Shown here: positions 5,255 through 26,849 of the stretch, one piece after another
How the letters are laid out: the number at the start of each line of letters is the position of its first letter
Numbering within the stretch: the first letter of the stretch is position 1
Source of the DNA: an uncultured bacterium
GTDB lineage: Bacteria > Patescibacteriota > Minisyncoccia > Phycocordibacterales > PALSA-1337
Length of the DNA stretch: 64,000 nt
Assembly (NCBI GenBank): GCA_903870315.1
Contig: CAIQCJ010000002.1
Coordinates: 4,820-68,819 of the forward strand
Direction of reading: 5' to 3'
Position numbers and translations under genes: made by a program
Notes under the pieces: generated by a model
What the model was told of the DNA's origin: nothing
The model's input: only the letters and a program-made list of their open reading frames with translations
The model's database searches: none

Positions 5255-5268
5255 AAACATGATCGAAA

Positions 5269-5441: not shown

Positions 5442-5443
5442 TT

Positions 5444-6433: not shown

Positions 6434-6451
6434 TAGAAGTAATTAACATTT

Positions 6452-6778: not shown

Positions 6779-6984
6779 AGGGCGAAGTTGAGGCGGCATG
6801 GGTCAGATACTTCGCCTTTGGAAATCTCGAATTCCCCGATGAAATGACGGTAGCGATTCTTTGCAGAGAAATGGGCTGGACATGGAATGAGCTTCAGAAT
6901 CAGCCGATCTGGTTTGTGAAAAATCTCATGGCATATCTTAGCGCTGAATCAGATCACATAAAAAAGCAGCAAAAAAATAAATGA
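6775..6984 (+). CDS. Tail assembly chaperone -1 frame extension (T part of G-T fusion)
   Basis: -1 frame reads LEGEVEAAWVRYFAFGNLEFPDEMTVAILCREMGWTWNELQNQPIWFVKNLMAYLSAESDHIKKQQKNK* with no internal stop and no ATG start. Terminates in ATGA overlap with tape measure start at 6981. Confidence 0.5.
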   Translation, partial: LEGEVEAAWVRYFAFGNLEFPDEMTVAILCREMGWTWNELQNQPIWFVKNLMAYLSAESDHIKKQQKNK

Positions 6985-8861: not shown

Positions 8862-8862
8862 C

Positions 8863-10293: not shown

Positions 10294-10299
10294 AACATT

Positions 10300-10818
10300 A
10301 TGAAAGAATTAATCAAAAAATTATTCGGAATAAAAGACAGTGCATCAATGCAGGGGATTATTAAAATCCGAGCATATAAAGCTGGCACTAAGGAATTGGT
10401 TCGGGAGATTGTGTGCAAAAACACTATCATGCAAGCAGCGAATATTGGCAAAGATTTGATCGTGCAGAAACTCATTGCAACAGCAACAGGAATTGATCCG
10501 TACACATTGCACATTACATATGGAGCTATTGGCACAAGTCAAACAGCACCAACAACAGCAGATACTCGACTTGGCGCGGAATCAGCTAGGGTCGCAATTA
10601 CATTCGGACAAGATAGCGGATACAACATCGCAGTCATGCAGTTTTTCTTTCCAGATTCTTCGCTAACAAACCAAACATACTATGAATTTGGAACTTTTGT
10701 TGACGGAACATCTACTCCAAATAGTGGACAGCTTTTCAATCATGCACTTTTCGGAGTGCCTTATTCCAAATCGGCCGGTATTGATACCACGATCGAGGTC
10801 GATATAACTCTTACTTAA
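10300..10818 (+). CDS. Phage tail protein (hypothetical)
   Basis: 172 aa ORF in tail module. No motif recognised. Confidence 0.3.
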   Translation: MKELIKKLFGIKDSASMQGIIKIRAYKAGTKELVREIVCKNTIMQAANIGKDLIVQKLIATATGIDPYTLHITYGAIGTSQTAPTTADTRLGAESARVAITFGQDSGYNIAVMQFFFPDSSLTNQTYYEFGTFVDGTSTPNSGQLFNHALFGVPYSKSAGIDTTIEVDITLT

Positions 10819-10823
10819 AAAAT

Positions 10824-11816
10824 ATGATATCAACAGGACAACAAGCACTCGCATCCGACTTCATCGCTACTTCCGCAGGCGCGGGAAGCAGTGGTCAGGT
10901 TCCGAAATGCAATTCACTCGGAAAGATAGATAACTCTTTTCTTCCAATTAAATTCGGCGGTACCGGAGCGGATGGTGTGCTTTCAATCACATCGGGTACG
11001 ACAACAATAAGCGCCGGAAGTGCAAGTGTTCTTGTTAAAAATTACACATCCATATCGATCACAGGAACTGGAAAACTCGCATTTTCAAATCCCGGATCAA
11101 ATGGAACTTTAATATTTCTAAAATCGCAAGGAAACGTAACACTCACGTCATCAACCGCTCCAATGATTGATGCCTCTAATATGGGAGGTCCGGCAGGAAC
11201 GGCTGGATATTATGGCGATGGAACTAGCCCAACACAAGGAGCGGGCGGAAACTTTTATAGCGGTGGATCATGGGGACAAGGCGGTGGTGGTGGAGGTGGA
11301 GGTGGCGCACTTTCAGGTGGTGGCACTGGTTACTACAGTGGAAGTGTGCCTGCTGCCGGTGGAGGAACGACTGGTCTGAAAAGTATTCTCGCATCTTACG
11401 CTTACGCAAAAGGGACGAAACTCGTGACAGGTGCAGGCGGTGGTACAGGAAACAACGGAGCAGGTTATGGTGCATCAGGTGGTGCAGGTGGAGTCGGAGG
11501 CGGATGTTTGGTAATTGAATGCGCCGGTTATTTAAATTTCACAACAGCAAACGGAATTTCTGCCGCAGGATCGAATGGTGGAAACGGAACATCAAGTGGT
11601 AATGGAAATGGATTCGATGGTGGTGGGGGTGGTGGAGGCGGAGGTGGAACTGTAATTCTTTTATACAACCTTCTTACAGCAAATTCAGGAACAGTAAATG
11701 TTAATGGCGGAAACGGCGGGAACGGAGGTACTGGCGGAACTGGAAGTCCTGCCGGTTCAGGTGGTGGCGGGGGTAGCGGCTTGTCATTAGTAGCTCAAAA
11801 TACAGAATTTACATAA
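10824..11816 (+). CDS. Glycine-rich tail fibre-like protein with poly-Gly tracts
   Basis: 330 aa, runs of 8-10 Gly (GGGGGGGGG) and GxG repeats. Last gene of the tail module. Confidence 0.4.
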   Translation: MISTGQQALASDFIATSAGAGSSGQVPKCNSLGKIDNSFLPIKFGGTGADGVLSITSGTTTISAGSASVLVKNYTSISITGTGKLAFSNPGSNGTLIFLKSQGNVTLTSSTAPMIDASNMGGPAGTAGYYGDGTSPTQGAGGNFYSGGSWGQGGGGGGGGGALSGGGTGYYSGSVPAAGGGTTGLKSILASYAYAKGTKLVTGAGGGTGNNGAGYGASGGAGGVGGGCLVIECAGYLNFTTANGISAAGSNGGNGTSSGNGNGFDGGGGGGGGGGTVILLYNLLTANSGTVNVNGGNGGNGGTGGTGSPAGSGGGGGSGLSLVAQNTEFT

Positions 11817-11824
11817 AAAATATT

Positions 11825-11998
11825 ATGCAAGAACAAGAACAAAAACCAAATATTATTCACGAATTGAAATGCGGTATATGTGGAAAAGTCTGCGGAACGA
11901 TTACGTTTCCGTCAGAATCTGAAGTGGATCTAGATGAGGTCTCTGCTGGCCACGAAACATTATGTGATGAACATTCACCAAAAAATCCCGATGAATGA
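11825..11998 (+). CDS. Small Cys-rich (CxxC ... CDEH) hypothetical protein, possible zinc ribbon
   Basis: ATG at 11825. MQEQEQKPNIIHELKCGICGKVCGTITFPSESEVDLDEVSAGHETLCDEHSPKNPDE. Below ORF-track length cut-off. Stop overlaps next start. Confidence 0.25.
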   Translation: MQEQEQKPNIIHELKCGICGKVCGTITFPSESEVDLDEVSAGHETLCDEHSPKNPDE

Positions 11999-12203
11999 AA
12001 ACCCTATTGAAAAAAGAATAGAGACTATTGAATCCGAAATAAAGCAGATCAAGGAAAATCACTTGGCACACATCAAGGAAATTTTGGCTGTGGTAAAAAC
12101 CAATCAGGAATGGATAATGCGATTTTTTTGGATTCTTACATCCGCTTCGGTCGCAGGACTAATTACTGGAATTATAAATTTATTAATCAAAACAAAAATA
12201 TGA
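11991..12203 (+). CDS. Putative holin-like small membrane protein (single C-terminal TM)
   Basis: MNENPIEKRIETIESEIKQIKENHL... then hydrophobic FFWILTSASVAGLITGIINLLI segment. Immediately upstream of, and overlapping, the endolysin gene. Confidence 0.3.
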   Translation: MNENPIEKRIETIESEIKQIKENHLAHIKEILAVVKTNQEWIMRFFWILTSASVAGLITGIINLLIKTKI

Positions 12204-13258
12204 ATGAACAATCAATTGCAACCGGAGCTTTAATATCTCCGCATGACTATAGGGACGGATATGCGTCAGCGGCAGTTGCAGAACAAATTTCTACACAAAT
12301 TAATCTGCCGGTATCTTACAAAACAATTCTCGCATCTCCGATGATGCAAGCGTTGGAGCCAGCATGCGTGTCGCACAGTGTTGTCGACAACCTAAAACTT
12401 TACTGGTTTAGAAAAACAGGGAAGTGGATTGACTTCTCTCCGAGATTTCTCGATATCCTCGCTAAAAGATTTGATGGTCAGGATCGTGCGACAGGCGGTA
12501 CGTATCCTCGTCTCGTATTCAAGCTCGCAGTTTTGTACGGATGTGCCACAACAGCGACACTACCGAACGACACATCGCTGTCAGTCTTGAATTATCGTGA
12601 TGATAGCAAGCTCACTCCTGAAGTATTCGCTGAAGCTAGTCAGTATAAGATTCCCGGCTACGTTTCTGTACCGCTCGATTTTCAAGGAACACGTCAATCA
12701 ATCTATTTATACGGAGCGATTTCGACACTCTTTCAAGTTGGTGATGAATTATGGACTCCATCATGGGCAGACAAGGACATTGACCCATTACGTCCGCCAA
12801 AAGTTATCCTTTCAGGGCATCAAATGTCGCCATTCGGATGGGAAGACAACGTGTACAACGATCTCCAAAATGAATGGAGCGATAAATGGGCAAATAAAGG
12901 ACAGGATCGCTATGATCCAAAAGCATGGTCGCCATACATCATCGAACAGTGGGCAGTCGCAGAAATTCCTCAAGATGTTCAGGACTTTTTGAAAGCTTTG
13001 CCCGCTCCAAATAATTTTCATTACAGTTGGCAAAGAGATCTTGCACTTGGCGACAATAACGATGATGTCAAATTCGCGCAGATCGCATTTATGATCCTAG
13101 GATTTCTCGCACCAATTCCTGCTAATGAGCTCGGCATCTTCGGTCCGAAAACTGCCGCAGCAAACGCTAAGTATCAGCAAGCACATAAGATCGCACCGGC
13201 ACCGAATCATATAGGTCCGCAAACGCGCGCGGCATTAAACGCACAATTTGCGATCTAG
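12200..13258 (+). CDS. Endolysin: N-terminal hydrolase domain (possibly Cys-peptidase-like) plus C-terminal peptidoglycan-binding domain (PG_binding_1-like)
   Basis: C-terminus DDVKFAQIAFMILGFLAPIPANELGIFGPKTAAANAKYQQAHKIAPAPNHIGPQTRAALN fits the G..V..lQ..L...G(x)FG..T..A...(Y/F)Q...G..G..T...L PG-binding pattern. Located between two holin-like genes. Confidence 0.5.
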   Translation: MNEQSIATGALISPHDYRDGYASAAVAEQISTQINLPVSYKTILASPMMQALEPACVSHSVVDNLKLYWFRKTGKWIDFSPRFLDILAKRFDGQDRATGGTYPRLVFKLAVLYGCATTATLPNDTSLSVLNYRDDSKLTPEVFAEASQYKIPGYVSVPLDFQGTRQSIYLYGAISTLFQVGDELWTPSWADKDIDPLRPPKVILSGHQMSPFGWEDNVYNDLQNEWSDKWANKGQDRYDPKAWSPYIIEQWAVAEIPQDVQDFLKALPAPNNFHYSWQRDLALGDNNDDVKFAQIAFMILGFLAPIPANELGIFGPKTAAANAKYQQAHKIAPAPNHIGPQTRAALNAQFAI

Positions 13259-13286
13259 GTCGAATTATTAATCAATAAAAAATATC

Positions 13287-13505
13287 ATGAATCCAACACT
13301 TAAAAGATATCTGATAAGCTCAGCCACAACGTTTGTAACAGCTTTTATCATTTCCGTCGGCGCACAACTTACAACGATGCAAATCACGCCAGAAACGCTC
13401 GGGTGGGGAATTGTTGCGTCTATCGGAGCAACAGCCTGCCGTGCGGCGATTAAAGCCCTAATTGAGGCTTTTTCAGGCACAACTGGTGATCCATTATTGG
13501 GTTAA
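13287..13505 (+). CDS. Small two-TM membrane protein (holin/antiholin-like)
   Basis: 72 aa, two hydrophobic segments (ATTFVTAFIISVGAQL; GWGIVASIGATACRAAI). Last gene of lysis cassette. Confidence 0.35.
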   Translation: MNPTLKRYLISSATTFVTAFIISVGAQLTTMQITPETLGWGIVASIGATACRAAIKALIEAFSGTTGDPLLG

Positions 13506-13579: not shown

Positions 13580-13608
13580 CTAGGTTGTTAGAAATTAACA
13601 GTAAAAAC

Positions 13609-14691
13609 ATGGAAGACAACAGCCGAAAATTTGATCACAGAATTAAAAATCCTGAGCCTCATATCGTCGCTTTTTTGGCAGCGATAGATGAAATTCGTGG
13701 AGCTTTTCGCGTTGGTCTTCGCATGACTCCTCAAGCGATCACCAATCTGCACAAATCCGTACTCGTGACATCAGCTGGTGCTTCTACACGTATTGAAGGT
13801 GCAAAACTTTCTGACGAAGAAGTAAAGAAAATCATGGAAGGATTCTCAATCCAAAAATTCTCCGATCGTGATTCACAGGAAGTGCAGGGCTATCTTGAAA
13901 CGCTCAAAAATGTTTTCGACAATTATAAAGACTTGCCATTGCGAGAAAGCATAATTACTTCGCTCCACAAAGAGCTTCTAAAATATTCAAACAAGGACGA
14001 CTTACATCGTGGAGAATACAAGCATAAGGAAAATCTAGTCGGCGTTCTCGATGCCAAAGGAAATGTGGCAAAGATCATGTTTGAAACAACCCCAGCATAT
14101 CTCACACAAAAAGAGATGACTGAGCTTGTTGAATGGACACAGGAAGCACTAGAGAAAGAACGCTTCCATCCACTTCTAGTGATCGCCAATTTCCTTATTG
14201 AATTCCTGAAAATACACCCATTTGAAGACGGAAATGGTCGTATTTCGCGTGTTCTCACGAACTTACTACTTCTTCGACAAGGCTATTCATTTGCACAATA
14301 CGTCTCGCATGAGCAGATCATAGAGCAACGCAAGGATCAATACTATCTTGCTCTCCGATCATCGCAGGCGACATTTAGAAGTCAAACCAAGCCGGAAGGA
14401 CAAGAAGAAACGATCACACCTTGGCTCAACTTCTTCTTTTCAGTTGTGAAAGAACAGGCAGACAAGTCAATCGTGCTTGTAGAAGAAGAAACACACGAAG
14501 ACATAATGTCTCCAAAGCAAAACGAAGTCTTGGAATATCTCTCAAAGGTAAAAGAAGCTGGTCCAGCCGAGATTGTCAGAGAAACTGGAATTATTATGCC
14601 ATCGGTTCGTAAATCACTTGAACGGCTTGTCGAGCTTGGCAAAGTAAAAAGAATTGGTCGAGGCAGAGCAACGAGGTACGTAAAAATATAA
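13609..14691 (+). CDS. Fic family protein (Fic/Doc AMPylation-type domain) with C-terminal winged-helix-like region
   Basis: Canonical Fic motif HPFEDGNGRISR. ORF-track start 13585 is TTG; ATG (MEDNSRKF) at 13609 chosen. Confidence 0.8.
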   Translation: MEDNSRKFDHRIKNPEPHIVAFLAAIDEIRGAFRVGLRMTPQAITNLHKSVLVTSAGASTRIEGAKLSDEEVKKIMEGFSIQKFSDRDSQEVQGYLETLKNVFDNYKDLPLRESIITSLHKELLKYSNKDDLHRGEYKHKENLVGVLDAKGNVAKIMFETTPAYLTQKEMTELVEWTQEALEKERFHPLLVIANFLIEFLKIHPFEDGNGRISRVLTNLLLLRQGYSFAQYVSHEQIIEQRKDQYYLALRSSQATFRSQTKPEGQEETITPWLNFFFSVVKEQADKSIVLVEEETHEDIMSPKQNEVLEYLSKVKEAGPAEIVRETGIIMPSVRKSLERLVELGKVKRIGRGRATRYVKI

Positions 14692-14695
14692 AATT

Positions 14696-16636
14696 ATGAA
14701 AAATAGTACAAAAAAAATTAATCTAACATCATCAAATCTCAGTGAAGAAAAGCTTTATGATCTGAAAAAAATATTGCCAGAAGTATTTAGTGAAAATAAA
14801 ATTGATTGGGACAAATTAAAAACTGTCCTTGGCGACAACATTGATCCTCGACTTGAAAAATTCGGGCTTTCTTGGGCTGGAAAAAATAATGCCATACGTA
14901 GCGTTATAGTTCCAAGCAGTTCGACACTTCGTCCAGACACAAAGGCAAGCGTAAATTTCAACGTGACAGAAAATCTATTCATTGAGGGTGATAACCTAGA
15001 AGTTTTGAAACTTTTACAAAAGGCGTATTTTGAAAAAGTAAAAGTTATATACGTAGATCCTCCATATAACACTGGATCAGATTTTGTTTATAAAGATGAT
15101 TTTAAATCTCCAATCAAGGCATACCTTGAGCAGACAGGCCAAGTAACCAATGATGGACAGAGGCTTCAAACAAACAAAGAGACGAACGGACGATATCATA
15201 GTGATTGGCTTTCAATGATGTATCCTCGACTTAAATTAGCGTGGAATCTCCTAAGAGAAGATGGAATAATTTTTGTAAGTATTGATGACAATGAGGTCAA
15301 TCATTTACGATTAATCATGGATGAAATATTTGGCGAGGAAAACTATTTGAATGCGTTTTGTTGGGTTAATAATCTAAAGGGTCGTCAAATATCTGGATCA
15401 GGAGCGGCGAAAACATATGAATATGTATTGGCATATGCTAAGAAAATTGAAAATGTTGGAATATTTGAGATGTCTGTTGAGAAATTAAAAGCTTTGATGC
15501 CTAGTAGTTACAAAGGATTTAATTATGAGACTGAAAATGACGAGGGTGGAGACTTTGTTGTAAAAAATGAACTTTATAATACAAACTCTGCTTTCAACGA
15601 AGAAACTCGTCCTAGTTTGGTTTACAATATTCACTATAATTTCAAAACAAAAGAGGTAAAGTTTTCTAGTATTAAAGAAGATGTTGATTTTGCCGGCTTT
15701 ACGAAAATTACACCAAAGAAAAACAACAATGGGAGACACAAATATCATGCTTGGAGATGGAGCAAAGACAAGGTTGCTAATGAATTAGCTGATTTAAAAT
15801 TTGTCGAAACAAAAGAGGGTGCAAAGATCTATACAAAGATCCGTGAATATACAAGCACTGCATTAAAAGACATAATCACTGATATTACAACAAGTAATGG
15901 AGCGAGCGATATTAAAGAATTATTTAATGGTGCAAAATACTTTGACTATCCAAAGCCTGTTGATTTACTAAAAGTATTTATCAGCCAAATGGGGACCGAG
16001 GGTATTGTTTTGGACTTCTTCGCGGGTTCTGGTACAACAGCCCATGCGGTGATGAGTCTTAATGCTGAAGATGGTGGAAGTAGAAAATTTGTCTTGGTTC
16101 AACTACCTGAAAGTACTAATAAAGAAAGCGAGGCGTATAAGGATGGATACAAAACTATAGCAGATATTGCCATAGAGCGTATTCGTCGCGCAGCAAAAAA
16201 ACTGTCAGACAAAACGGGTTTCAAGGTATTTAGACTGGGAGCTTCTAACTATCCAGAAAATAACTTTGAGTTTGATCCAGATAAAAGCGAGGATGAAAAT
16301 AAAAAAGCTTTTACATCCTATCTTGTAAAAGCAAAACAAAGTTCGCTATTTGATGATGAAAATGGTCTAGATGTTGTGTATGAAAATATTGTAAAAGAAG
16401 GTTTTTCGCTGAACTCTGTAATAGAGGAAAGAAAACTTGGCAAAAATAATCTTTACATCGTGAAGGACGGTGAACGCAAAATTCATATTTGTCTAGATAA
16501 AACAGTTGACAAAGATACGATCAAAGAACTCTCTGATCGCAATTACAAAGATTCAGTATTTATATGTATTGATAATGCTTTGGATGACACGGGGAAGGCG
16601 AACCTGGGTCTTAATCTAGAACTTAAAACTATTTAA
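14696..16636 (+). CDS. mod: Type III restriction-modification system methyltransferase (Mod, beta-class N6A/N4C MTase)
   Basis: Motif IV DPPY (KVIYVDPPYNTGSDF) precedes motif I FxGxG (VLDFFAGSGTTAHAV), i.e. beta-class order typical of Type III Mod. Immediately followed by res. Confidence 0.85.
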   Translation: MKNSTKKINLTSSNLSEEKLYDLKKILPEVFSENKIDWDKLKTVLGDNIDPRLEKFGLSWAGKNNAIRSVIVPSSSTLRPDTKASVNFNVTENLFIEGDNLEVLKLLQKAYFEKVKVIYVDPPYNTGSDFVYKDDFKSPIKAYLEQTGQVTNDGQRLQTNKETNGRYHSDWLSMMYPRLKLAWNLLREDGIIFVSIDDNEVNHLRLIMDEIFGEENYLNAFCWVNNLKGRQISGSGAAKTYEYVLAYAKKIENVGIFEMSVEKLKALMPSSYKGFNYETENDEGGDFVVKNELYNTNSAFNEETRPSLVYNIHYNFKTKEVKFSSIKEDVDFAGFTKITPKKNNNGRHKYHAWRWSKDKVANELADLKFVETKEGAKIYTKIREYTSTALKDIITDITTSNGASDIKELFNGAKYFDYPKPVDLLKVFISQMGTEGIVLDFFAGSGTTAHAVMSLNAEDGGSRKFVLVQLPESTNKESEAYKDGYKTIADIAIERIRRAAKKLSDKTGFKVFRLGASNYPENNFEFDPDKSEDENKKAFTSYLVKAKQSSLFDDENGLDVVYENIVKEGFSLNSVIEERKLGKNNLYIVKDGERKIHICLDKTVDKDTIKELSDRNYKDSVFICIDNALDDTGKANLGLNLELKTI

Positions 16637-16639
16637 TTT

Positions 16640-19258
16640 ATGAAGCTTAAATTTGACGCAAATCAAGATTTTCAGATCGATGCGATAAATGCGATCGCTG
16701 ATCTTTTTGAAGGTCAAAGCAAGACAGCAAGTAAAATGATAGCTGGTAGTGGGCTTCTTGGTATTTATCCAAATATTCTCACTCTTACAAAAGAGGAGAT
16801 ATTAATAAATACGGCTAAAGTTCAGGATCATAATGGGATCTTGAATGGTGGTTTGGTAAAAGATTTAGATTTCTCTATTGAAATGGAAACTGGTACGGGT
16901 AAAACTTATGTCTATATACGAACCATTTTTGAATTAAATAGAAAATATGGTTGGAAAAAGTTTATTATTCTTGTGCCTTCAGTTGCAATTCGCGAAGGAG
17001 TCATAAAGACACTTAAAATAACTAAGGATCATTTTGCTGATCTTTACGATAATGTTCCATATCGTTTTTATGAGTATCAGTCAAAAAATATTTCTCAGGT
17101 TAAACATTTTGCAGATAGTAGTAATATCGAAATAATGGTTATGACGATTGGAGCTTTCAACAAAGACACGAATGTTCTATATAGTGAGCGAGATCAAATG
17201 CATGGTGAACAACCGATTAGCTATATTCAAAAGACTAACCCTATTTTAATTTTGGATGAACCTCAAAATATGGAGGGAGATTCGACAAAAAAGGCGATCG
17301 ATAATTTTAATTCAATATTTCGTTTGCGATATTCTGCAACACACAAGAATTTGTACAACCTAGTCTATCAACTTGCTCCATATGATGCCTATCAACTCGG
17401 ACTAGTTAAAAAGATAGAAGTATTTTCTGTTGTTGATCAAGACGATGCAACATCAGCCCCACTAATAAATTTAATTGAAGTTAAACCTAGTAAGACTGCC
17501 CTCAAAGCTCAAGTGGAGATAATATCAAAAGACGATCAGGGTGAAGGAAAGAAAAAAAAGATCAGCGTAAAACAGGGTGATGACCTAGCAAAAAAGACCA
17601 ACAATGCAACATATGAAGGTTATGTTATTGAAGAACTCACAGCTGACGCTCCAGATTTTGGCTCAATCGGCTCTATTCGCTTTAGAAATAATATACAGAT
17701 TAAGAAGGGCGAAGGTATTGGTGGAAATCGTGAAGACATAATGAAAGAGCAGATTACTGAAACAATCAAATTGCATTTTGAAAAGAAGAAAAAACTTAGA
17801 GAGTTTGGAATTAAAGTTCTTTCATTATTTTTTATTGATCGTGTTGATAATTATGTGAAAGACGATGGTTTTATCAGACAAACATTCATAAAGCAATTCA
17901 ATATTCTTAAAAAAGAATACGGTGAAAGTGGCGCAAACGTAAATACTGTCCATAAGGGATACTTTGCAATGAAGAATGCAAATGAGTACATTGAGCGTGA
18001 ATCTGCAATAGCTGAAAACAAAGAGGCTTACGAACTGATAATGAAAGACAAGGAAAGATTACTTTCTTTTGAGGAACCAACAGAATTTATCTTTTCACAC
18101 TCTGCACTTAAGGAAGGTTGGGACAATCCAAATATTTTTAATATTTGCACACTTAATCTTACATCTTCGACGATGAAAAAACGTCAAGAAATTGGTCGAG
18201 GTATGCGACTCTGCGTTAATCAGGATGGAGAACGAATCTTCTTAAAAAATATTAATCTTTTGTCAGTGATTGCAAACGAGAGTTACTCCAGCTATGTCGC
18301 AGGCCTTCAGTCTGAGTTTGTTGATGATGGTATATACAAAGCACCGCCATTACCATACAACGCAAAAAGAAAAATCACAGTTAAACTCAAAAGAGGATTC
18401 AATACTGACGAAAATTTCAAAGCAATATGGGATCGTATATCAAAAAAGACAAAATACGTAGTTCGAGTTGATTCTGGCCGTGTTCTTGAGCGAGCAATAA
18501 AAAGAATCAATGAATTAAAGATACTTAAACCTCAAATTAAAATTGAGCGTGCAGGAATATCTATTGCACAGGAGGGTATCGCGGCAAGTATAATAGGCGG
18601 TCAATCTTTTGAACTTACACAAAACAAGCGTACGATTGATTGCGTTGGACTTATTAAAAGTGAGACAAAACTCACAAGAGACACAGTGGCAACAATTTTA
18701 GAAAAGTCTAAAAACCTTAAATCTTTCTTCAATAATCCTGAGAAATTTATTTATGAGGTGACGAAAATAATAAAAGAAGAATTGGTACATGATTATATTG
18801 AGCAGATAAGCTATGAAATTATTCCTGAAAAATACAATGTGGATCAATTTGAAAATATTTCAAGCTATGTTGATGCGACAGAGCCAGTTAAACACTCAAT
18901 CTATGAAGCCATTGTCTATGATTCCGAAGTTGAACAACAATTTGCAGTAGATCTTGATCAGGATGAAAGAATTAAATTATTTATAAAACTTCCAGCTTGG
19001 TTCAAGGTTGAAACACCGGTGGGAACATATAACCCAGACTGGGCTATTGTAACAGCAAAAAGAGATCTGCAAGGGAAGGAGGATCATGAAAAAGTCTATT
19101 TTATAATTGAGACAAAGGGCGGTACAAACCTGAGATCGTCCGAACGTGCAAAGATAGATTCAGCCAAGAAGCACTTTGAAGTGATCTCGGTTAACTATAA
19201 AGAGATCAACAAAGGCTATAAACAATTTAATCAGGAATGCTTGATTAATAAGCAATAA
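16640..19258 (+). CDS. res: Type III restriction enzyme Res subunit (SF2 helicase plus C-terminal PD-(D/E)xK endonuclease)
   Basis: Walker A METGTGKTYV, motif II ILDEPQNM, C-terminal YNPDWAIV ... IIETKG nuclease motif. 3-nt spacing after mod. Confidence 0.85.
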   Translation: MKLKFDANQDFQIDAINAIADLFEGQSKTASKMIAGSGLLGIYPNILTLTKEEILINTAKVQDHNGILNGGLVKDLDFSIEMETGTGKTYVYIRTIFELNRKYGWKKFIILVPSVAIREGVIKTLKITKDHFADLYDNVPYRFYEYQSKNISQVKHFADSSNIEIMVMTIGAFNKDTNVLYSERDQMHGEQPISYIQKTNPILILDEPQNMEGDSTKKAIDNFNSIFRLRYSATHKNLYNLVYQLAPYDAYQLGLVKKIEVFSVVDQDDATSAPLINLIEVKPSKTALKAQVEIISKDDQGEGKKKKISVKQGDDLAKKTNNATYEGYVIEELTADAPDFGSIGSIRFRNNIQIKKGEGIGGNREDIMKEQITETIKLHFEKKKKLREFGIKVLSLFFIDRVDNYVKDDGFIRQTFIKQFNILKKEYGESGANVNTVHKGYFAMKNANEYIERESAIAENKEAYELIMKDKERLLSFEEPTEFIFSHSALKEGWDNPNIFNICTLNLTSSTMKKRQEIGRGMRLCVNQDGERIFLKNINLLSVIANESYSSYVAGLQSEFVDDGIYKAPPLPYNAKRKITVKLKRGFNTDENFKAIWDRISKKTKYVVRVDSGRVLERAIKRINELKILKPQIKIERAGISIAQEGIAASIIGGQSFELTQNKRTIDCVGLIKSETKLTRDTVATILEKSKNLKSFFNNPEKFIYEVTKIIKEELVHDYIEQISYEIIPEKYNVDQFENISSYVDATEPVKHSIYEAIVYDSEVEQQFAVDLDQDERIKLFIKLPAWFKVETPVGTYNPDWAIVTAKRDLQGKEDHEKVYFIIETKGGTNLRSSERAKIDSAKKHFEVISVNYKEINKGYKQFNQECLINKQ

Positions 19259-19262
19259 ATTT

Positions 19263-20429
19263 ATGAAAGAAAGAATTAAGGATACAATACAAGACTGTAA
19301 CATCAATTTCCTGATTGGATCCGGACTTTCTTCTCCGTTCTTAAAAACACTCGGAAATATCGAAATACTACTTACAAAATTAGATGACCAAAATATTACT
19401 GACACAGAAAAGAAAGTGATTCGAGCATCACTCTACAAAAAATTTTTTGAAGATGCGATCCTTAAAAATCCCAAGATATTAGAGTCAGATATTGATGCTA
19501 ATTCTGCACTGAAGCATTATCACGACTTTCTGAAGTCAATTAACTCAATTCTTCTTAGACGTAAAAGTACGATATTAAGTAAGGAAGTTAATTTATTTAC
19601 TACCAACTTCGATATTTTTTTAGATAAAGCTCTCGAAGATGTATCAGTTGAATACAACGATGGATTCAATGGTCGATTTCTCCCTCAATTTAGTCTAACC
19701 AACTTCAAAAAATCAAGGTTTAAAAAGAGCCTGCATTATGACAACATATCAGAAATACCTGTATTTAATTTGCTTAAATTACATGGATCACTTTCTTGGA
19801 AACTGATTGATAAAACGGAAAATAGTGAAATAGTATTTTCTTCTGACTTGTCCAATCTTAAGGATATACAAAGTAAGATACCGAGCATGGAACACCTGAT
19901 TGATGTTCAAGCTGACTCAACAGTAGAGACCCTAGTAAATGCTGTCCCGGGCAAAGTCCTTGATCCATCAGTTCAAACCTTTATGGAAGCATATGAAAAG
20001 CTCTCGATTGTAAATCCTAATAAAGATAAGTTCCGTCACACACTACTTAATCAGACTTACTACGAAATGCTTAGGATATATTCGAATGAATTGGAAAAAG
20101 AAAATACCGTTTTGTTTGTCATGGGTTTTTCTTTTGCAGACGAGCATATCCGTGAAATTACACTTCGCGCAGCCAATTCTAACCCGACAATGATGATCTA
20201 TATATTTGCATATAGCTCAAAGAGTAAAGCGGACATTCAATCTAAATTCGATTCAAAAAATATAAAAAATAAGAATATTGTAATTGTCGGTCCAGAAACT
20301 AAAGAGGACGGTGATGACAAATTTAAATACGACCTAGAGACAATTAACGCCCAAATTTTTGATTGTCTTCTTGAAAAAGAGGATACAAAAGAGTCGGCAA
20401 CATCAGATGTGCCTAAGGAGGCTAAATAA
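19263..20429 (+). CDS. SIR2-like (SIR2_2 family) NADase-type defense protein
   Basis: NFLIGSGLSSPF (GxGxS N-terminal block), TTNFD, KLHGSLSW and VMGFSFADEHI blocks characteristic of defense-associated SIR2-like domains. Directly upstream of HerA-like ATPase. Confidence 0.7.
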   Translation: MKERIKDTIQDCNINFLIGSGLSSPFLKTLGNIEILLTKLDDQNITDTEKKVIRASLYKKFFEDAILKNPKILESDIDANSALKHYHDFLKSINSILLRRKSTILSKEVNLFTTNFDIFLDKALEDVSVEYNDGFNGRFLPQFSLTNFKKSRFKKSLHYDNISEIPVFNLLKLHGSLSWKLIDKTENSEIVFSSDLSNLKDIQSKIPSMEHLIDVQADSTVETLVNAVPGKVLDPSVQTFMEAYEKLSIVNPNKDKFRHTLLNQTYYEMLRIYSNELEKENTVLFVMGFSFADEHIREITLRAANSNPTMMIYIFAYSSKSKADIQSKFDSKNIKNKNIVIVGPETKEDGDDKFKYDLETINAQIFDCLLEKEDTKESATSDVPKEAK

Positions 20430-20433
20430 TTTT

Positions 20434-22335
20434 ATGAATAATGATTCAATCGCAGAAGACGCAATTTTCAAAATAGGAAAGGTCATCTCGGTTGATGGCA
20501 GGACAATTAGAGTTGGCATAGATAAAACTAAAAATTCTTCGCATCTTGTATACAAAGGTGAGCTTCTAAAAAATATTTCGGTGGGTGGTTACATAAAAAT
20601 TATTAAGGGGTTCACAAAAATAATTGGCAAGGTTGAGGGAGAATTTATTAATGAAGATAAACAGTTCGGTAAAAAGGGTTATGGTAGCGAGAAGGAAAAG
20701 ATCAATAGAGTCTTGAGCGTCAGTCTACTCGGTTTTTTTAGAGGTAGTCACTTTGAGAGAGGTATTAAAGAATTGCCACTTATTGATAATGAATGCTTTT
20801 TACTTCACAACAGAGAATTTGATCAAGTACATAATTTCATCAAAGATAATGATGATCCTATTACAATTGGTGCATTAGCATTAGAAAAAGGTCAGTCAAT
20901 AAAAGTCGGTATAAATAGTTTATTTGCTAGTCATATTGGAATATTTGGTAACACTGGTAGCGGAAAATCTTACACTCTTGCAAAAATTTATCGTGAACTT
21001 TTTGAGAAATATAAGAATGAAATAAAATTCAAGAGAAATGCTAGGTTTTTTCTGATTGATTTTAACGGAGAATATATAGACACATCTTCGAGAAGTGATA
21101 GTGTAATCATTGATAAAAAATATAAAAGCACCTATAAATTGTCTACTAGAAATGACAAGGGTGACAAGTACCCGATTCCAATAGATGCAATAAGAGAAGC
21201 TGAATTCTGGGTTATTTTTCTTCAGGCAACAGAAAAAACTCAAGCTCCGTTCTTAAAGAGGGCTGTTGAGAGTGTTTATCTTCAGGGCAAGATACAAGTT
21301 GAATCAGATTTAAAAGACATGATCGCAAAGATGATTTTTACTGCGACAACTGATGGTGATAAGACCTTGGAGAAAACAGTCGTAATGAATCTTCTTGAAG
21401 AAATAAAGGATTGCTTGGGGGGTAATACAACAATAGATGATCTTATTTCAGACTATCGCCTCAATCTGCATTATCATAGTAAAAATAATAAATATTACTA
21501 CGGCACTGATTCAGCCACCGCAATGTATAGCGACAATGCTTCATACAAGCAAACTGTTGTTGACGATAAAATTAATACGCTTTCCATAAACACGAAACAA
21601 ATATCTCCTATTGATGAAGTTAGACTTCAAATTGTGATTCAGTACTATGAAGACATAATTAGAGGTTTTTCAAACAAGGAACATCTCTCTCCACTGCTCA
21701 AACGATTAGATAAAAGAGTGGATCATTTAAAGAAGGTGATCAACGTCATAAATGACGCTGAAACCCCAATGCCAAAGCAGAAAAATCTTATTATTGTATC
21801 TCTAAAAGATGTAAATATTCAGATAAGAAAGATCATCCCGATGCTTTTATGTAGAAAGCTGTATAATGATAAAAAAGAAAGTAACAATGATCAGACATAT
21901 CTCAATCTTATAGTTGATGAGGCACACAATATTTTGTCTGAAAATTCAGAAAGGGAAAGTGAGCAATGGAAAGATTACCGCCTTGAGACATTCGAGGAAA
22001 TTATTAAGGAAGGTCGAAAGTTTGGTGTTTTCTTAACAATTGCAAGTCAACGTCCATCGGATATTTCACCAACGATCATATCTCAATTACATAATTACTT
22101 TTTACATAGATTGATAAATAATGAGGATATACGAGCAGTAGAAAAAACAATTTCATATCTCGATAAAGTATCTTTTGAATACCTTCCAATTCTTCCTACG
22201 GGTACATGTATAGTTGCTGGACTTTTGGCAAATGTGCCAGTAGTGGTTGATATTGGTAGAATTATTCCACCTAAGCACGAACCAAAAAATAAGACTCGCA
22301 CGCTTATTGATAAATGGAAAACAAATAAAAAATAA
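20434..22335 (+). CDS. HerA/FtsK-like ATPase (SIR2-HerA partner)
   Basis: ATG at 20434 preceded by aaggagg RBS. N-terminal barrel-like KIGKVISVDGRTIRVG. Walker A GIFGNTGSGKSYTL, Walker B LNLIVDEAHNIL. Confidence 0.7.
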   Translation: MNNDSIAEDAIFKIGKVISVDGRTIRVGIDKTKNSSHLVYKGELLKNISVGGYIKIIKGFTKIIGKVEGEFINEDKQFGKKGYGSEKEKINRVLSVSLLGFFRGSHFERGIKELPLIDNECFLLHNREFDQVHNFIKDNDDPITIGALALEKGQSIKVGINSLFASHIGIFGNTGSGKSYTLAKIYRELFEKYKNEIKFKRNARFFLIDFNGEYIDTSSRSDSVIIDKKYKSTYKLSTRNDKGDKYPIPIDAIREAEFWVIFLQATEKTQAPFLKRAVESVYLQGKIQVESDLKDMIAKMIFTATTDGDKTLEKTVVMNLLEEIKDCLGGNTTIDDLISDYRLNLHYHSKNNKYYYGTDSATAMYSDNASYKQTVVDDKINTLSINTKQISPIDEVRLQIVIQYYEDIIRGFSNKEHLSPLLKRLDKRVDHLKKVINVINDAETPMPKQKNLIIVSLKDVNIQIRKIIPMLLCRKLYNDKKESNNDQTYLNLIVDEAHNILSENSERESEQWKDYRLETFEEIIKEGRKFGVFLTIASQRPSDISPTIISQLHNYFLHRLINNEDIRAVEKTISYLDKVSFEYLPILPTGTCIVAGLLANVPVVVDIGRIIPPKHEPKNKTRTLIDKWKTNKK

Positions 22336-22339
22336 TTAT

Positions 22340-23092
22340 ATGTCAGAATATTACAACGCCAACAGAACAAGAAACATCTACGATCCAGAAAGTCCGGAAC
22401 CTTTTAAGTTGTCACGATCAAAAATCGAGCTCTATATGAAATGCCCGAAATGCTTCTATATGGATCGCAGACTTGGTGTTGGACAGCCACCGGGCTTCCC
22501 GTTTGCCCTAAATTCGGCCGTAGATGCCCTCCTAAAGAAAGAATTCGACATACATAGAGCTAAGAAGACTCCTCATCCGCTTATGAAGGCGTACGGCCTT
22601 GATATGGTCCCTTTTGCACACGAGAAGATGGGAGAGTGGCGAGAGAATTTCAAAGGGGTCCAGTATCACCATGAAGCTACAAATTTCATTATGACCGGAG
22701 CTGTGGACGACTTGTGGGTGAATGGGGAAGGGGAAATCACTGTTGTTGATTACAAATCAACAAGTAAACCTGCAAAAGTAACTCTAGATGCTGACTGGCA
22801 GATTGGATACAAGCGTCAGATGGAAATGTATCAATGGTTACTACGCAAGCTAGGCTTCAAAGTGTCAAATACTGGTTATTTTGTATATTGTAATGGAAAA
22901 ACTGATCGCACAGCATTTGATGGAAAACTAGAATTTGATATTGATTTATTACCCTACACTGGAAGTGACTCGTGGGTCGGCGGAGTCCTCCATGAGATCA
23001 AGCAGTGTCTTGATGGCGAAATGCCAGATTCGAGTCATGATTGCGACTTCTGTAATTTTAGAAAAGCCGCAAATGCAGTTGATAAAAAATAA
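22340..23092 (+). CDS. PD-(D/E)XK nuclease, Cas4/RecB-like with Cys cluster
   Basis: N-terminal CPKC, core GAVDDLWV ... EITVVDYKS (D ... E-x-K), C-terminal HDCDFCNF Cys cluster. ATG at 22340 (MSEYY) chosen over upstream in-frame start. Confidence 0.5.
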   Translation: MSEYYNANRTRNIYDPESPEPFKLSRSKIELYMKCPKCFYMDRRLGVGQPPGFPFALNSAVDALLKKEFDIHRAKKTPHPLMKAYGLDMVPFAHEKMGEWRENFKGVQYHHEATNFIMTGAVDDLWVNGEGEITVVDYKSTSKPAKVTLDADWQIGYKRQMEMYQWLLRKLGFKVSNTGYFVYCNGKTDRTAFDGKLEFDIDLLPYTGSDSWVGGVLHEIKQCLDGEMPDSSHDCDFCNFRKAANAVDKK

Positions 23093-23134
23093 TCTGTCCT
23101 TCATTTAAAAACAAAAATATTGTAAAATTACCAA

Positions 23135-23743
23135 ATGGATCAAATTATCTACATTTTAATAAACGAAGCGATGCCCGGATATGTAAAAGTTGGTAAGACT
23201 ACAGATTTAGAGCAAAGGGTCCGCGATCTATCGCGTGCTTCAGGAGTTCCTCTTCCTTTTGAAGTTTTTTATGCTGCAAAAGTGAAAGACATGCATGAAG
23301 CTGAAAAATTAATACATGATGCCTTTGGAGATACACGCGTAGCTCCGAACCGAGAATTTTTTAAGATTGCTCCAGAAAGAATTGTGGCGGCCTTAAAATT
23401 GGCTCAATTAGAAAATGTAACCCCACATAGCGACTTCGTTGATTCTCCTGAAGAACAAAAAGCTCTAGATAACGCTAGGAAGAATCGGGCAAAATTTAAT
23501 TTTGAAATGGTAAAAATAATGCCGGGTAGTATTTTAACTTTCACTCGAAATCCAGAGATAACATGTAAGGTTATCAATGACACACAAATTGAATATAATG
23601 GGGAAATAAAAAGTCTTTCTGAGGCGGCAAAACTAGCTCTTGGGATTGATTACCAAGTGGCCGGGACATTGTACTGGGAATATGATGGGGAGACATTGGA
23701 TGAACGCCGAAGGCGCTTCGAAGAAGGTAACGATCAAGAATAA
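23135..23743 (+). CDS. T5orf172 (GIY-YIG-like) domain protein with DUF4357-like C-terminus
   Basis: IYILINEAMPGYVKVGKTTDLEQRVRDL ... FEVFYAAKVKDMHEAEKLIHDAF ... NREFFKI matches the T5orf172 pattern. Confidence 0.5.
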   Translation: MDQIIYILINEAMPGYVKVGKTTDLEQRVRDLSRASGVPLPFEVFYAAKVKDMHEAEKLIHDAFGDTRVAPNREFFKIAPERIVAALKLAQLENVTPHSDFVDSPEEQKALDNARKNRAKFNFEMVKIMPGSILTFTRNPEITCKVINDTQIEYNGEIKSLSEAAKLALGIDYQVAGTLYWEYDGETLDERRRRFEEGNDQE

Positions 23744-23747
23744 AATT

Positions 23748-23906
23748 ATGTCATTAGATGGTAAAGATCCAGACGAAATAATAGAGATTGCTGAAATAGC
23801 ACAAAACCAAGGTGTTGATATTGAGGATGCTGAAAAAATAAAAGACCTTATGGATGATGAAGGACTGGACGAAGAAGATGCTGCGGAGTTGGTGGATTTA
23901 ATTTAA
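23748..23906 (+). CDS. Small acidic hypothetical protein (52 aa)
   Basis: MSLDGKDPDEIIEIAEIAQNQGVDIEDAEKIKDLMDDEGLDEEDAAELVDLI, ATG 4 nt after the upstream stop. Very acidic. Confidence 0.3.
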   Translation: MSLDGKDPDEIIEIAEIAQNQGVDIEDAEKIKDLMDDEGLDEEDAAELVDLI

Positions 23907-23917
23907 TAAATAATTTG

Positions 23918-24793
23918 ATGACATTTTCTGAAAACAAAGTTCTAAAATATTTTGAAAAAAATAAAACAACGATACTGACACTGTCATTTTTAGCGTTGGT
24001 CTTTATTGCACTCAATATCTCCGGAAATGCTGTGTACTATAAATTTTTTAATACCAATATAGATCAAGCGACCACCACAGCAGATATATCAACAGGCGGT
24101 TCTCCTTCAAGCTGCAACGTCCTCGGTATAAATTTGCACGGTGAGCTCTATACATATATTCCAAAACAAAATGATGTTGATCCAACGACAAACTATGATG
24201 TGGTTTCTAGCGAGAATGTTGTATCGCTTATCCAGAAAGCTGATCAGGATAGCACCATAAAGGCAATCCTTATAGAAGTAGATTCACCCGGCGGAGAACC
24301 CGTTGCGGGAGAGGAAATTGCGAATGCCCTAAAGACCGCTACCAAGCCAACCGTTGCAGTGATTAGGCAAACTGGAGCATCTGCCGCCTATTGGGCAATC
24401 AGCAGTGCAGGAAAAATATTTGCATCAAGAAATTCTGATGTTGGTAGTATCGGCGTTACCGAATCATACGTTCAAGATCCGACAACGAGCAAAAACTTTG
24501 TACAGATCTCAGTAGGGAAGTATAAAGACACCGGTAATCCAGCTAAACCCCTAACAGCTGATGACAAAGCTCTTCTTTTGAGAGATATCAAAATTGTTCA
24601 ACAGAATTTTATTAATGATGTTGCGACGAATCGAAATCTTTCGGTAGATGCGGTAACAAAAATTGCGGATGGCTCATCAGTTCTTGGAGATAAAGCTAAG
24701 TCAGTTGGTTTGATTGATGAGATTGGAGATGAAACGTCAGCACAAAATTATTTGTCACAAAAAATAGGAACGCCGGCATCTCTTTGTTGGTAA
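23918..24793 (+). CDS. SppA/S49-family membrane serine peptidase (signal peptide peptidase-like)
   Basis: N-terminal TM, AILIEVDSPGGEPVAGEEIANAL, Ser nucleophile context TGASAAYWAIS, Lys in VGKYKD. ORF-track start 23915 is TTG; ATG at 23918. Confidence 0.55.
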   Translation: MTFSENKVLKYFEKNKTTILTLSFLALVFIALNISGNAVYYKFFNTNIDQATTTADISTGGSPSSCNVLGINLHGELYTYIPKQNDVDPTTNYDVVSSENVVSLIQKADQDSTIKAILIEVDSPGGEPVAGEEIANALKTATKPTVAVIRQTGASAAYWAISSAGKIFASRNSDVGSIGVTESYVQDPTTSKNFVQISVGKYKDTGNPAKPLTADDKALLLRDIKIVQQNFINDVATNRNLSVDAVTKIADGSSVLGDKAKSVGLIDEIGDETSAQNYLSQKIGTPASLCW

Positions 24794-24800: not shown

Positions 24801-25076
24801 TTATTTTATATTTGCGATTCCTTTGAAGACCTCCATTTCCATAAGAACGTGATTATAAAGTTCGTCAGAAATTTCGTCATTCTTAAATTCAACTTTCCGT
24901 TTCAAATTATTTACTTCTAAAAAGAGTCTTCTTTTTCGCCCATCAAAATTATATAGAACCACTAGTGTAAAAGATCCATCGAGCTTCTCGTGGTACCAAA
25001 GCGTGGCTTTTTCTCCTTCCCAGATATGACCATTTTTACGTAGGGTCTCAAATGGATCGATTTCATATTTCGACAT
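24801..25076 (-). CDS. Hypothetical protein (91 aa)
   Basis: Only minus-strand ORF in the prophage cargo region. No motif. Confidence 0.3.
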   Translation of the reverse strand: MSKYEIDPFETLRKNGHIWEGEKATLWYHEKLDGSFTLVVLYNFDGRKRRLFLEVNNLKRKVEFKNDEISDELYNHVLMEMEVFKGIANIK

Positions 25077-25422: not shown

Positions 25423-26367
25423 ATGTTACTTCGAGATGCAATCGAAAAATATTTGCTCTGGAAGGGTACTGAGACTCGTGTAGCAGCTAAAGTCTACAGA
25501 CCATTCCTTGAGCATTTCTACACCTACGTTGGCAACAGAGATACCCTCGACATAACCCTTGAGGACATCTCCGGATTCCGAGCATCGTTGCGATTAAAAT
25601 ACAACGATGGCAACATTGCGAACCATAACAATGTGATCAAGAATTTCTACAAATGGCTTGAAGCACTCAGGGCAACAACTGTACATCCATTCCTGATACG
25701 CAACCCAAGATTCCAAGCTCCTGAGAGACCGGTAGCGACACCGGACGAGGTTAAAAGAATGTGCGCTACCCTTAATGAGAATTCCTACGGGGATCTTATA
25801 AGACTTATTGCGATCAGACTCATGTGGGAGTCGATGATCAGGGTAAGCGAGCTTGTGGACCTAAATATTAACGACATCGTGTCGCAAAAGAATTACACAG
25901 AAATTGTAGGTAAGAAAAATTATAAGAAACGATGGATTATGTGGTCGCCAGAAACCCATCAACTCCTGCTAACGTATGTCACCAAGCGAAAAGCGTATCT
26001 TGATCACGAAGCATTGTTCGCTCATGAGAAAGGCGGTGTAGCACAAAGAATGAATACTAGAAGCGTTGAGCGATGGTTAAAAATTGCTCGAGAAAAAGCG
26101 GGTATTGAAAAAGAAATATCTTGTCACGCATTGAGACATGGCGGAGCGCACGAGCTGGTCAAGAAAGGTGCGAGCCTAAAATTCATTGGATTGATCCTCG
26201 GACACTCAGATAACAACCCTCGAGCCGGCATGCAATATCTACGATTCAGTAAGGAGGAATCCCTAGATGTAGTAAACAAATTTGTGGGACTAAGATTCAA
26301 TCCGAATGAAATTCCGCCTCAATTAGAGCCTTTAGTCGGAGCGTATGGAGCTTACAGCATGGCGTGA
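25423..26367 (+). CDS. int: Tyrosine-type phage integrase / site-specific recombinase
   Basis: C-terminal catalytic region HALRHGGAHELV ... LGH ... MQYL (R, HxxR, Y). N-terminal SAM-like core-binding region. Confidence 0.85.
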   Translation: MLLRDAIEKYLLWKGTETRVAAKVYRPFLEHFYTYVGNRDTLDITLEDISGFRASLRLKYNDGNIANHNNVIKNFYKWLEALRATTVHPFLIRNPRFQAPERPVATPDEVKRMCATLNENSYGDLIRLIAIRLMWESMIRVSELVDLNINDIVSQKNYTEIVGKKNYKKRWIMWSPETHQLLLTYVTKRKAYLDHEALFAHEKGGVAQRMNTRSVERWLKIAREKAGIEKEISCHALRHGGAHELVKKGASLKFIGLILGHSDNNPRAGMQYLRFSKEESLDVVNKFVGLRFNPNEIPPQLEPLVGAYGAYSMA

Positions 26368-26409: not shown

Positions 26410-26628
26410 ATGACAAAAGGAGAGGAAAGTAGTAAAAAACCAAAAGGAGGTCGTGGTAAAGTCGAATCGCTTCGAAATCAAGCCATTGTGACCTTATACG
26501 AGACTGATCATAAGCTCTACAACACAAATACGTTGGGGAAGTTATTCGGGCGCGATAGGAAGACCGTTCAAGGCATTATTAAGAGGTTTGCACCTTCACA
26601 GCAAAATAAGACGGCTATCGGCCAATAA
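26410..26628 (+). CDS. Small basic HTH protein (excisionase / transposase-HTH-like)
   Basis: 72 aa, LRNQAIVTLYETDHKLYNTNTLGKLFGRDRKTVQGIIKRF helix-turn-helix-like segment. Directly downstream of int. Promoter-like TTGTAA-17-TGaTAAATT ends about 7 nt before the ATG (possible leaderless mRNA). Confidence 0.4.
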   Translation: MTKGEESSKKPKGGRGKVESLRNQAIVTLYETDHKLYNTNTLGKLFGRDRKTVQGIIKRFAPSQQNKTAIGQ

Positions 26629-26849
26629 AAGGCCTAGGCGGGCTCAAAAGAGTAATCCACTTGTCGCACTTGCTATATGTTGTGGGATGTTTATACTTAA
26701 TGGTGTGATCATTGAAAACTAGATTCTCCACGAAACTTCGGGTGATAGGGGAACTTTTATAGCCGCTTCGAGCGGCATTACAAATACGACACTATGTCGC
26801 ACAATATATCTTTTGCGAAGTGATAAGATATGAAAAAACCGATTATATC

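Follow-up and report, generated by a model that had tools for sequence, protein, structure and literature searches.

What is the role of four tightly linked genes that sit between a set of defence genes and an integrase gene, and do they belong together? The question is raised by a 64-kb window (the whole stretch of DNA analysed here, 64,000 nucleotides of contig CAIQCJ010000002.1 from an uncultured member of the Patescibacteriota), in which co-directional open reading frames (ORFs) at 22340-24793 encode a Cas4-like PD-(D/E)XK nuclease (Cas4L), a T5orf172 protein, a small acidic protein and an SppA-like peptidase of family S49. A first, sequence-only reading had placed these ORFs inside a prophage, after SIR2-HerA genes and before an integrase (25423-26367), and had taken them as one undescribed defence or superinfection-exclusion module. 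Our analysis confirms the placement and the prophage setting between defence cargo and integrase: the four ORFs lie inside a ~36.5-kb siphovirus-like temperate prophage at a dif-like site of the chromosome of a member of Patescibacteria (candidate phyla radiation, CPR). They are probably not one defence system and instead make up, together with their neighbours, a mosaic accessory arm of separately exchangeable passengers and backbone genes, in which each of the four most likely works independently of the others.

The accessory arm and its slots

We compared gene order across ~20 distinct related elements (~19 for presence counts) and mapped indel boundaries by blastn to within a few nucleotides. 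L-numbers denote related loci and ERZ- or P-numbers related contigs and proteins; g91 and g72 are ORFs of 91 and 72 aa. The arm is a scaffold with three slots, in the order lysin-holin-(slot A)-Cas4L-(slot B)-acidic-(slot C)-integrase-g72-attR, where attR is the right attachment (att) site. Slot A in the window holds Fic, type III restriction-modification (RM) and SIR2-HerA genes, and relatives hold other cargo; slot B holds T5orf172 in the window and elsewhere another gene or nothing; slot C holds the S49 gene (SppA) and g91 in the window and elsewhere an S-adenosylmethionine synthetase gene (MetK) or nothing. Cas4L and the acidic ORF thus belong to the semi-conserved backbone, and T5orf172 is a sporadic cassette.

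All four ORFs have homologues in other assemblies at 50-90% identity, and it is the combinations in which these occur that carry the mosaic reading. Cas4L is present in 14 elements (in L188 a DUF2779 nuclease stands at its position), the acidic ORF in ~12, SppA in ~12 and T5orf172 in 4 (the window, L092, L127 and ERZ1426830), while MetK takes the SppA position in 4 elements and neither SppA nor MetK is found in L012 and the P0252 contig. All four genes are found together in 2 of ~19 elements, the window and the diverged ERZ1426830 contig. The combinations seen are Cas4L-acidic-integrase, Cas4L-T5orf172-acidic-MetK, Cas4L-acidic-SppA, acidic-SppA without Cas4L, and SppA alone. The borders of these gains and losses are sharp. 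A 642-nt block carrying T5orf172 (23094-23735 of the window) is missing from L012, where Cas4L directly abuts the acidic ORF, as it also does in L095, which has no T5orf172. A 1.2-kb block carrying SppA and g91 (23908-25118) is missing from L012 as well, and again the flanking genes abut. The g91 ORF, which comes and goes with the slot C cargo, is missing from L012 and L095. With every subset of the four genes seen and the indels this sharp, the proposed four-gene module is not supported.

The features of the window that the argument uses are:

138..13505, plus strand: structural and lysis module (Pfam Phage_Mu_F, Phage_capsid, head-tail connector, tail tube, PG_binding_1 lysin)
816-1832: protease-like gene of the head module (PHROG head maturation protease families)
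13585..22335, plus strand: slot A defence cargo of Fic, type III RM (Mod, Res), SIR2 and HerA (PADLOC)
22340..23092, plus strand: Cas4L (Pfam PDDEXK_1, 6e-16)
23135..23743, plus strand: T5orf172 protein, GIY-YIG-like (Pfam T5orf172, 6e-18)
23748..23906, plus strand: acidic three-helix protein (homologue alignment, AlphaFold2 model)
23915..24793, plus strand: S49 (SppA-like) peptidase, membrane-anchored (Pfam Peptidase_S49, 1.4e-28)
24801..25076, minus strand: g91, 91 aa (79-87% identical copies in L092, L093, L127 and L129)
25423..26367, plus strand: Xer-like tyrosine integrase (Pfam Phage_integrase, 7e-26)
26410..26628, plus strand: g72, basic, 72 aa (found with the integrase in all relatives, 76-86% identity)
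26796..26819, no strand: attR with dif-like core GTCGCACAA-TATATC-TTTTGCGAA, the right prophage end

The gaps between these genes are short, with 4 nt from the HerA stop to Cas4L and then 42, 4 and 8 nt, and a promoter and terminator scan found no plus-strand terminator inside 22340-24793 and fewer promoter-like sites than expected by chance. GC content is 0.335-0.353 over 15001-22000, compared with ~0.40-0.45 in the flanks, and the slot A genes are clearly matched by PADLOC models (MTase_III 2.5e-169, REase_III 1.5e-248, SIR2 4e-62, HerA 2e-174). For g91, g72 and the acidic ORF, no significant family was found in Pfam, PHROGs, NCBIfam or PADLOC.

The interval from the holin (or Fic) gene to Cas4L is a defence hotspot of CPR phages. 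A different defence set occupies the slot A position in each of L009, L010, L012, L092-L094, L158, L188 and L189, and the contents seen include type I and type III RM, orphan methyltransferases, AAA_13, OLD-like AAA ATPases, a GrpE/Hsp70/AAA set and SIR2-HerA. Defence cargo flanked by conserved phage genes is familiar from the hotspots of P2 and P4 phages, and the arm resembles these in having changeable anti-phage cargo between conserved phage genes near the attachment site. It differs from them in its CPR host, in having three adjacent slots, in its flanks (holin or Fic on one side and the Cas4-like nuclease on the other) and in that slot C carries the host-like genes SppA and MetK, which are not defence genes. 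MetK lies at 11734-12732 of L092 and at the same position in L093, L127 and L129, slot C thus alternating between two host-like housekeeping genes.

A sister family (L158, L160, L188, L189) shares this architecture, with the order lysin-holin-cargo-(acidic)-SppA-DUF559-TrpR-like-333 aa ORF-integrase of 305 aa-p46. Its integrase is 24-27% identical to that of the window. The elements of this family have a common right end, and L160, L188 and L189 lie upstream of LeuRS, which is preceded by DUF5671 in L188 and L189.

Borders of the prophage and its attachment site

Homology of the window to L012, L092 and L095 ends at 26814-26826, just beyond the core GTCGCACAATATATCTTTT. Written out, the 24-bp core is GTCGCACAA-TATATC-TTTTGCGA(A/C). 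It is present as attR in the window and in 8 distinct relative elements, with outer flanks that differ every time, and the host sequence to its right differs in six loci. When the window is compared with L127, identity is high left of the core (Cas4L 85%, T5orf172 89%, acidic ORF 82%, g91 87%, integrase 81%, g72 82%) and falls to 34% for g107 and 40% for the M23 peptidase among the syntenic host genes right of it. The second integrase family shows the same cliff between L189 and L188, from 97% for the integrase and 98% for p46 to 33% for DUF5671 and 52% for LeuRS, and here too four loci lose homology at one shared point.

The left ends of the same viral contigs were recovered with an AAA_24 protein as the query. 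The left attachment site, attL, is represented by the half-site GTCGCACAATA at the left junction of L191, L192, L193 and L204 (at positions 1236, 122, 1888 and 113, respectively), each with a different host flank, and the order at the junction is host flank, GTCGCACAATA and then the conserved phage sequence beginning AGCCTT. A 36,887-nt contig (L204 and L092) holds both ends: attL is at 113, and 123 nt separate the attR core from the opposite end of the contig. The complete 24-mer core was not found in the left arms even when 6 mismatches were allowed; attL keeps only the 11-nt half-site. On integration an intact core is restored next to the integrase, and the opposite end is left with a hybrid half-site in which GTCGCACAATA precedes AGCC; the attP of the excised element would carry ACGACACTATGTCGCACAATAAGCCTT. 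These junctions and identity cliffs settle the question of host or phage in favor of phage, and the four genes therefore lie within the prophage.

The best scores of the integrase are to Xer families (NCBIfam XerA 3e-39 and XerD 5e-32, both below cutoff). It is always followed by g72 and, wherever downstream sequence was captured, by the att core. The g72 product has an isoelectric point of 10.3 and a weak hint of HTH_23 (E=0.04), and we infer for it a candidate role as an excisionase or recombination directionality factor. Between this small basic ORF and the att core, at 26700-26795 of the window and ~14270-14435 of L189, lie a CATTGAAAACT motif and two GC-rich hairpins that are common to both integrase families; this region could be a terminator, a set of arm-type binding sites or a small RNA.

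No tRNA that could serve as the att target was found in the window by a tRNA scan. The core has inverted 9-bp arms (GTCGCA[C/A]AA) flanking a 6-bp AT-rich spacer. Gene orientation changes from the plus to the minus strand exactly at the core, which also lies at one edge of the cumulative GC-skew plateau. An identical 19-mer of the core occurs in 26 viral-contig stretches, in several of which gene orientation converges on the site. L115 (2200-7631) and L119 (2067-7517) each contain a 5.4-kb element that has an exact copy of the core on either side and encodes a Zot-like ATPase and a rolling-circle initiator; the flanking genes converge on the site. This element looks like an inovirus integrated at dif in the manner of integrative mobile elements exploiting Xer recombination (IMEX), and such flanking by two copies is typical of filamentous phages integrated at dif. 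Because of its arms and spacer, the orientation switch, the skew, the reuse by an inovirus-like element and the Xer-like integrase, we read the site as dif-like and, on these sequence features, as a candidate dimer-resolution site. The integration of mobile elements has been used before to infer dif, in Legionellales (PMC9765430).

Like CTXphi and other IMEX elements, the prophage uses a dif-like site whose two inverted arms enclose a 6-bp spacer, and one intact copy of the site is regenerated. Unlike those elements, which rely on the host XerCD, it is ~36 kb long and tailed and brings its own Xer-like integrase with a small basic partner. A tailed phage with an Xer-like integrase of its own inserted at a dif-like site seems uncommon.

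Beyond the right end, host genes for an M23 peptidase, GluRS, MurG and FtsW follow on the minus strand. The left arm, known from a relative in the same sample that is 95-99% identical, carries AAA_24, RepO, two methyltransferases, a likely terminase and a portal-MuF fusion. In L161, a close relative of the window, a single 739-aa ORF (8441-10660) fuses portal and Mu-F-like head morphogenesis domains, and the window begins within the equivalent gene.

The four genes taken singly

Cas4L (250 aa) is matched by PADLOC Cas4 models down to 2e-8 and reaches 29.3 bits against TIGR00372, for which the cutoff is 65. A search of PDB sequences gave no match. Its AlphaFold2 model has a mean confidence (pLDDT) of 85, and Foldseek with this model retrieved MGME1, the AdnAB nuclease, Cas4, RecE and Exo5 (E 3e-5 to 7e-4, probability ~1.0). 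Invariant or nearly so among 86 Cas4L sequences are C35, C38, C235, C238, D123/D124, D137-Y-K139 and Q154..Y157, so that the RecB-type motifs (D, D/ExK, QxxxY) are all present. The protein thus shares its fold and the D...DxK and QxxxY motifs with Cas4 (SSO0001), AdnAB/AddB domains, MGME1 and Exo5. Unlike in Cas4 and AddB, its cysteines are arranged 2+2 (C35-x2-C38 and C235-x2-C238), its score is below the Cas4 cutoff and there are no cas genes nearby, none having been found in the ~100 neighborhoods examined. The cysteine cluster of canonical Cas4 consists of one Cys plus CX2CX5C. Cas4L is a RecB/Cas4-superfamily exonuclease and not Cas4 proper.

Relatives of Cas4L are numerous: the search returned at least 8000 homologues, of which the best 120 are 70-100% identical, and more than 578 GTDB species, whose best 80 loci encode proteins with 62-87% identity. 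In ~20 of these best GTDB loci, the orthologue (62-69% identical) follows genes for an NrnA-like phosphoesterase and a cyclophilin (PPIase), usually with AspRS nearby, and in other loci it lies near ThrRS, AlaRS or two-component genes. This housekeeping orthologue is an uncharacterised, highly conserved phylum-wide gene. The loci with a housekeeping context are L025, L035, L038-L040, L052, L059, L063, L067-L069, L071, L072, L074, L080, L086 and L087; the NrnA-like protein is a DHH phosphoesterase, and AspRS is just upstream of the set in most cases. AspRS, NrnA and the PPIase are absent from the window. The copies nearest to that of the window (77-88% identity) have the layout lysin-holin-(defence cargo)-nuclease-(small genes)-(integrase-g72), and all phage-context copies form one clade in a neighbor-joining tree. 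The phage gene was probably taken from this widespread host housekeeping gene, and its product would process DNA ends for phage recombination or replication; the phage also encodes, near attL, the AAA_24 protein, which may be a Sak4-type recombinase. The gene itself would serve as the conserved right flank for swaps in slot A.

The sequence-only reading had labelled the second gene T5orf172/DUF4357. The first half of that label is supported by Pfam, and the second is not, as the matches of this 202-aa protein in the Pfam scan were limited to T5orf172, MUG113 and, weakly, GIY-YIG, with no DUF4357 at E<=10. It is also the one gene of the four for which the proposed defence flavor finds partial support: residues 2-197 match positions 5-208 of the 212 in the PADLOC profile PDC-S57 (PDLC05041) with 1.6e-69. 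We found no mention of PDC-S57 by name in the literature searched, and experimental validation of the family is not known to us. A scan of viral contigs with T5orf172 gave only 2 loci. The match to PDC-S57 is end to end, and what sets the window gene apart is that it is a presence/absence cassette of a phage. In L007 (2639-3118) and the ERZ1426681 contig, which have a Cas4L 100% identical to that of the window, T5orf172 is shortened to 159 aa. Because such copies occur in near-identical strains, part of the population can do without the gene, which is decaying there.

T5orf172 would be a free-standing cassette for a GIY-YIG-type nuclease, either a single-gene defence candidate of the PDC-S57 kind or a homing endonuclease. 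That it is a selfish homing-endonuclease gene in the site between Cas4L and the acidic ORF, and not a defence gene, is quite possible though short of likely. In phages, free-standing T5orf172 genes have been read as homing endonuclease genes located at the boundaries of recombination (PMC10448857), and the gene shows the presence/absence polymorphism at a fixed intergenic site that is looked for in homing genes, the block lying exactly between two conserved genes that abut in its absence. Against this stand the strong full-length match to a PADLOC family derived from defence islands and the identity of the T5orf172 copies (78-89%), which is like that of the flanking genes and does not indicate recent invasion. 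The presence/absence pattern and the short copies fit homing as well as they fit defence.

The acidic protein has 52 aa (51-52 in homologues), with 20 D/E against 3 K/R and 18 positions that are invariant in an alignment of 20 homologues. AlphaFold2 predicts a three-helix bundle (pLDDT 91), for which Foldseek found nothing below E=1 in the PDB. A profile search gave 129 mostly small proteins, in some of which (P0305, P0306, P0308, P0316, P0322, P0331) the domain forms the C-terminal tail of a small protein with 1-3 transmembrane (TM) helices, which hints at a membrane-proximal role. Outside the phage arm the ORF occurs by type I RM/OLD-like islands (L183-185) and in a chromosomal context in Vogelbacteria (L186). 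It had been suggested as an antitoxin or inhibitor-like partner, but it is specific neither to the nuclease nor to T5orf172, as it also occurs without either. The protein may be a small adaptor or regulator, possibly at the membrane.

The S49 protein (292 aa) scores 100 bits against Pfam (cutoff 24.9) and 137.1 bits (6e-40) against TIGR00706 SppA_dom, below the cutoff of 155.45, and matches the SppA structures 3RST and 3BF0 at 2e-17. Its Ser156 lies in GASAAYW, which aligns with AASGGY, the motif that contains the nucleophile in both structures, and its Lys204 (GKYKD) aligns with the YK of E. coli domain 1, not with the Lys position of B. subtilis. A single hydrophobic or TM segment (residues 19-37) follows a Lys-rich N-terminal cytoplasmic tail, and the sole cysteines, Cys67 and Cys291, are both conserved in the listed homologues. 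The N-terminal anchor, the Lys-rich tail and the two conserved cysteines suggest that the catalytic domain faces outward. With SppA of the 36K type (B. subtilis 3RST, E. coli 3BF0) the protein shares the fold, the aligned catalytic Ser, the single N-terminal anchor and a similar size; unlike cellular SppA, it falls below the TIGR00706 cutoff, is borne by a prophage beside the integrase, is more divergent than its neighbors and has been swapped between lineages. An exact-sequence lookup of the protein from its TTG start gave no record, gene callers using an ATG one codon later, and a scan of viral contigs with the single SppA sequence gave no relatives.

The context of the gene had been called unusual, a view that our comparison contradicts. 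All five of the homologues checked, which were selected solely for long contigs, lie 0.3-5.4 kb upstream of a tyrosine integrase gene, and 4 of the 5 also follow lysin, holin and cargo. Identity of S49 is 49-60% in most pairs, against 76-98% for the neighbors (58% against 83-98% between L189 and L188; 51% against 76-86% between the window and L095). Because the S49 tree mixes the two integrase types, the gene is one that has been exchanged between phage lineages. It would be a host-like gene expressed by the lysogen, its product held by one TM anchor with the Ser/Lys domain outward and acting on the cell envelope.

The acidic and SppA genes might alternatively form a two-gene unit for lysogenic conversion or superinfection exclusion, in which a small acidic regulator would serve a membrane S49 protease, with the nuclease and T5orf172 as unrelated neighbors, which we find doubtful. 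The acidic ORF lies immediately before SppA in the window, L095, L158/L159 and L188, a 55-aa ORF takes the same place in ERZ1426830, and three further contigs probably have both genes, as judged solely from like-sized contigs among the hits. The tails on small TM proteins, the Lys-rich cytoplasmic tail of SppA, and the unusual divergence and shuffling of SppA between phage lineages also speak for such a unit, as does the regulation of B. subtilis SppA by its operon partner YteJ. On the other side, the acidic ORF is found without SppA in at least nine loci (L012, L092, L093, L094, L127, L129, L183, L186 and the P0252 contig) and SppA without the acidic ORF in at least four (L009, L017, L160, L189). 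A more specific form, which we consider unlikely, is a conversion or superinfection-exclusion unit particular to CPR phages, in which the outward-facing protease would be under diversifying selection because it targets proteins of other phages or the host surface, with the acidic protein regulating it at the membrane.

Readings of the arm as a whole

Four points weigh against the mosaic reading preferred here. The attL of the prophage lies outside the window and is taken from the 95-99% identical relative of the same sample. The diverged ERZ1426830 contig has all four genes in the same order (Cas4L 84%, SppA 59%), a recurrence that may reflect some functional linkage among them. In five or more loci, which span two integrase families, SppA directly follows the acidic ORF, an adjacency that could mark a two-gene unit. 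Finally, we infer every role given above to an individual gene.

It is very unlikely that the four genes act as a single system, so far undescribed, for defence or superinfection exclusion, with the nucleases as effectors, the acidic protein as an inhibitor or antitoxin and SppA as the membrane component. The order repeated in ERZ1426830, the tight spacing, the adjoining SIR2-HerA and RM cargo and the PDC-S57 match of T5orf172 all favor it; the rarity of the full set, with all subsets and sharply bounded indels, opposes it, as do the mostly housekeeping neighborhoods of Cas4L, the replacement of SppA by MetK and the absence of any PADLOC model matching the acidic ORF or SppA. The defence flavor of the earlier proposal is partly supported, and for T5orf172 only.

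Still harder to credit is that all four genes and the integrase gene belong to the host chromosome, in which case the integrase would be a host Xer encoded beside the host dif and the island would end at HerA. It is true that most Patescibacteria have Cas4L as a host gene, that Xer families give the integrase its best scores and that the site is dif-like and at a switch of gene orientation, but the attL and attR junctions enclose the genes, identity drops exactly at the core and the right flanks differ in six loci.

Least credible of all is a role of the S49 protein as an additional prohead protease or scaffold in the manner of lambda gpC. Its match to PHROG 53 'head maturation protease' (1.1e-43) and a weak one to NCBIfam Clp_rel_HeadMat would agree with such a role, but the protein has an N-terminal TM anchor, two conserved cysteines and direct matches to cellular SppA. 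Its gene is 21 kb away from the head module, which, as had been proposed, encodes a protease-like protein itself, and sibling phages whose right arm is homologous (Cas4L-acidic-integrase, 76-88%) either lack the gene or carry MetK in its place.

Read as a mosaic, the arm is an ordinary kind of structure, an accessory region with slots beside an integrase, in an under-studied group of phages and hosts. Three of the four genes recur as backbone or slot genes and should not be counted as a new system in scans for defence genes. The arm contains one defence candidate that is already in the catalogues, T5orf172, and two genes that recur, those for the fast-diverging phage SppA and the conserved acidic protein. 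Little is known of CPR phages and of phage resistance in CPR bacteria, and the elements described here form a widespread temperate family with a swappable three-slot arm, in which searches for new CPR defence cargo can conveniently start from the interval between the holin and Cas4L.

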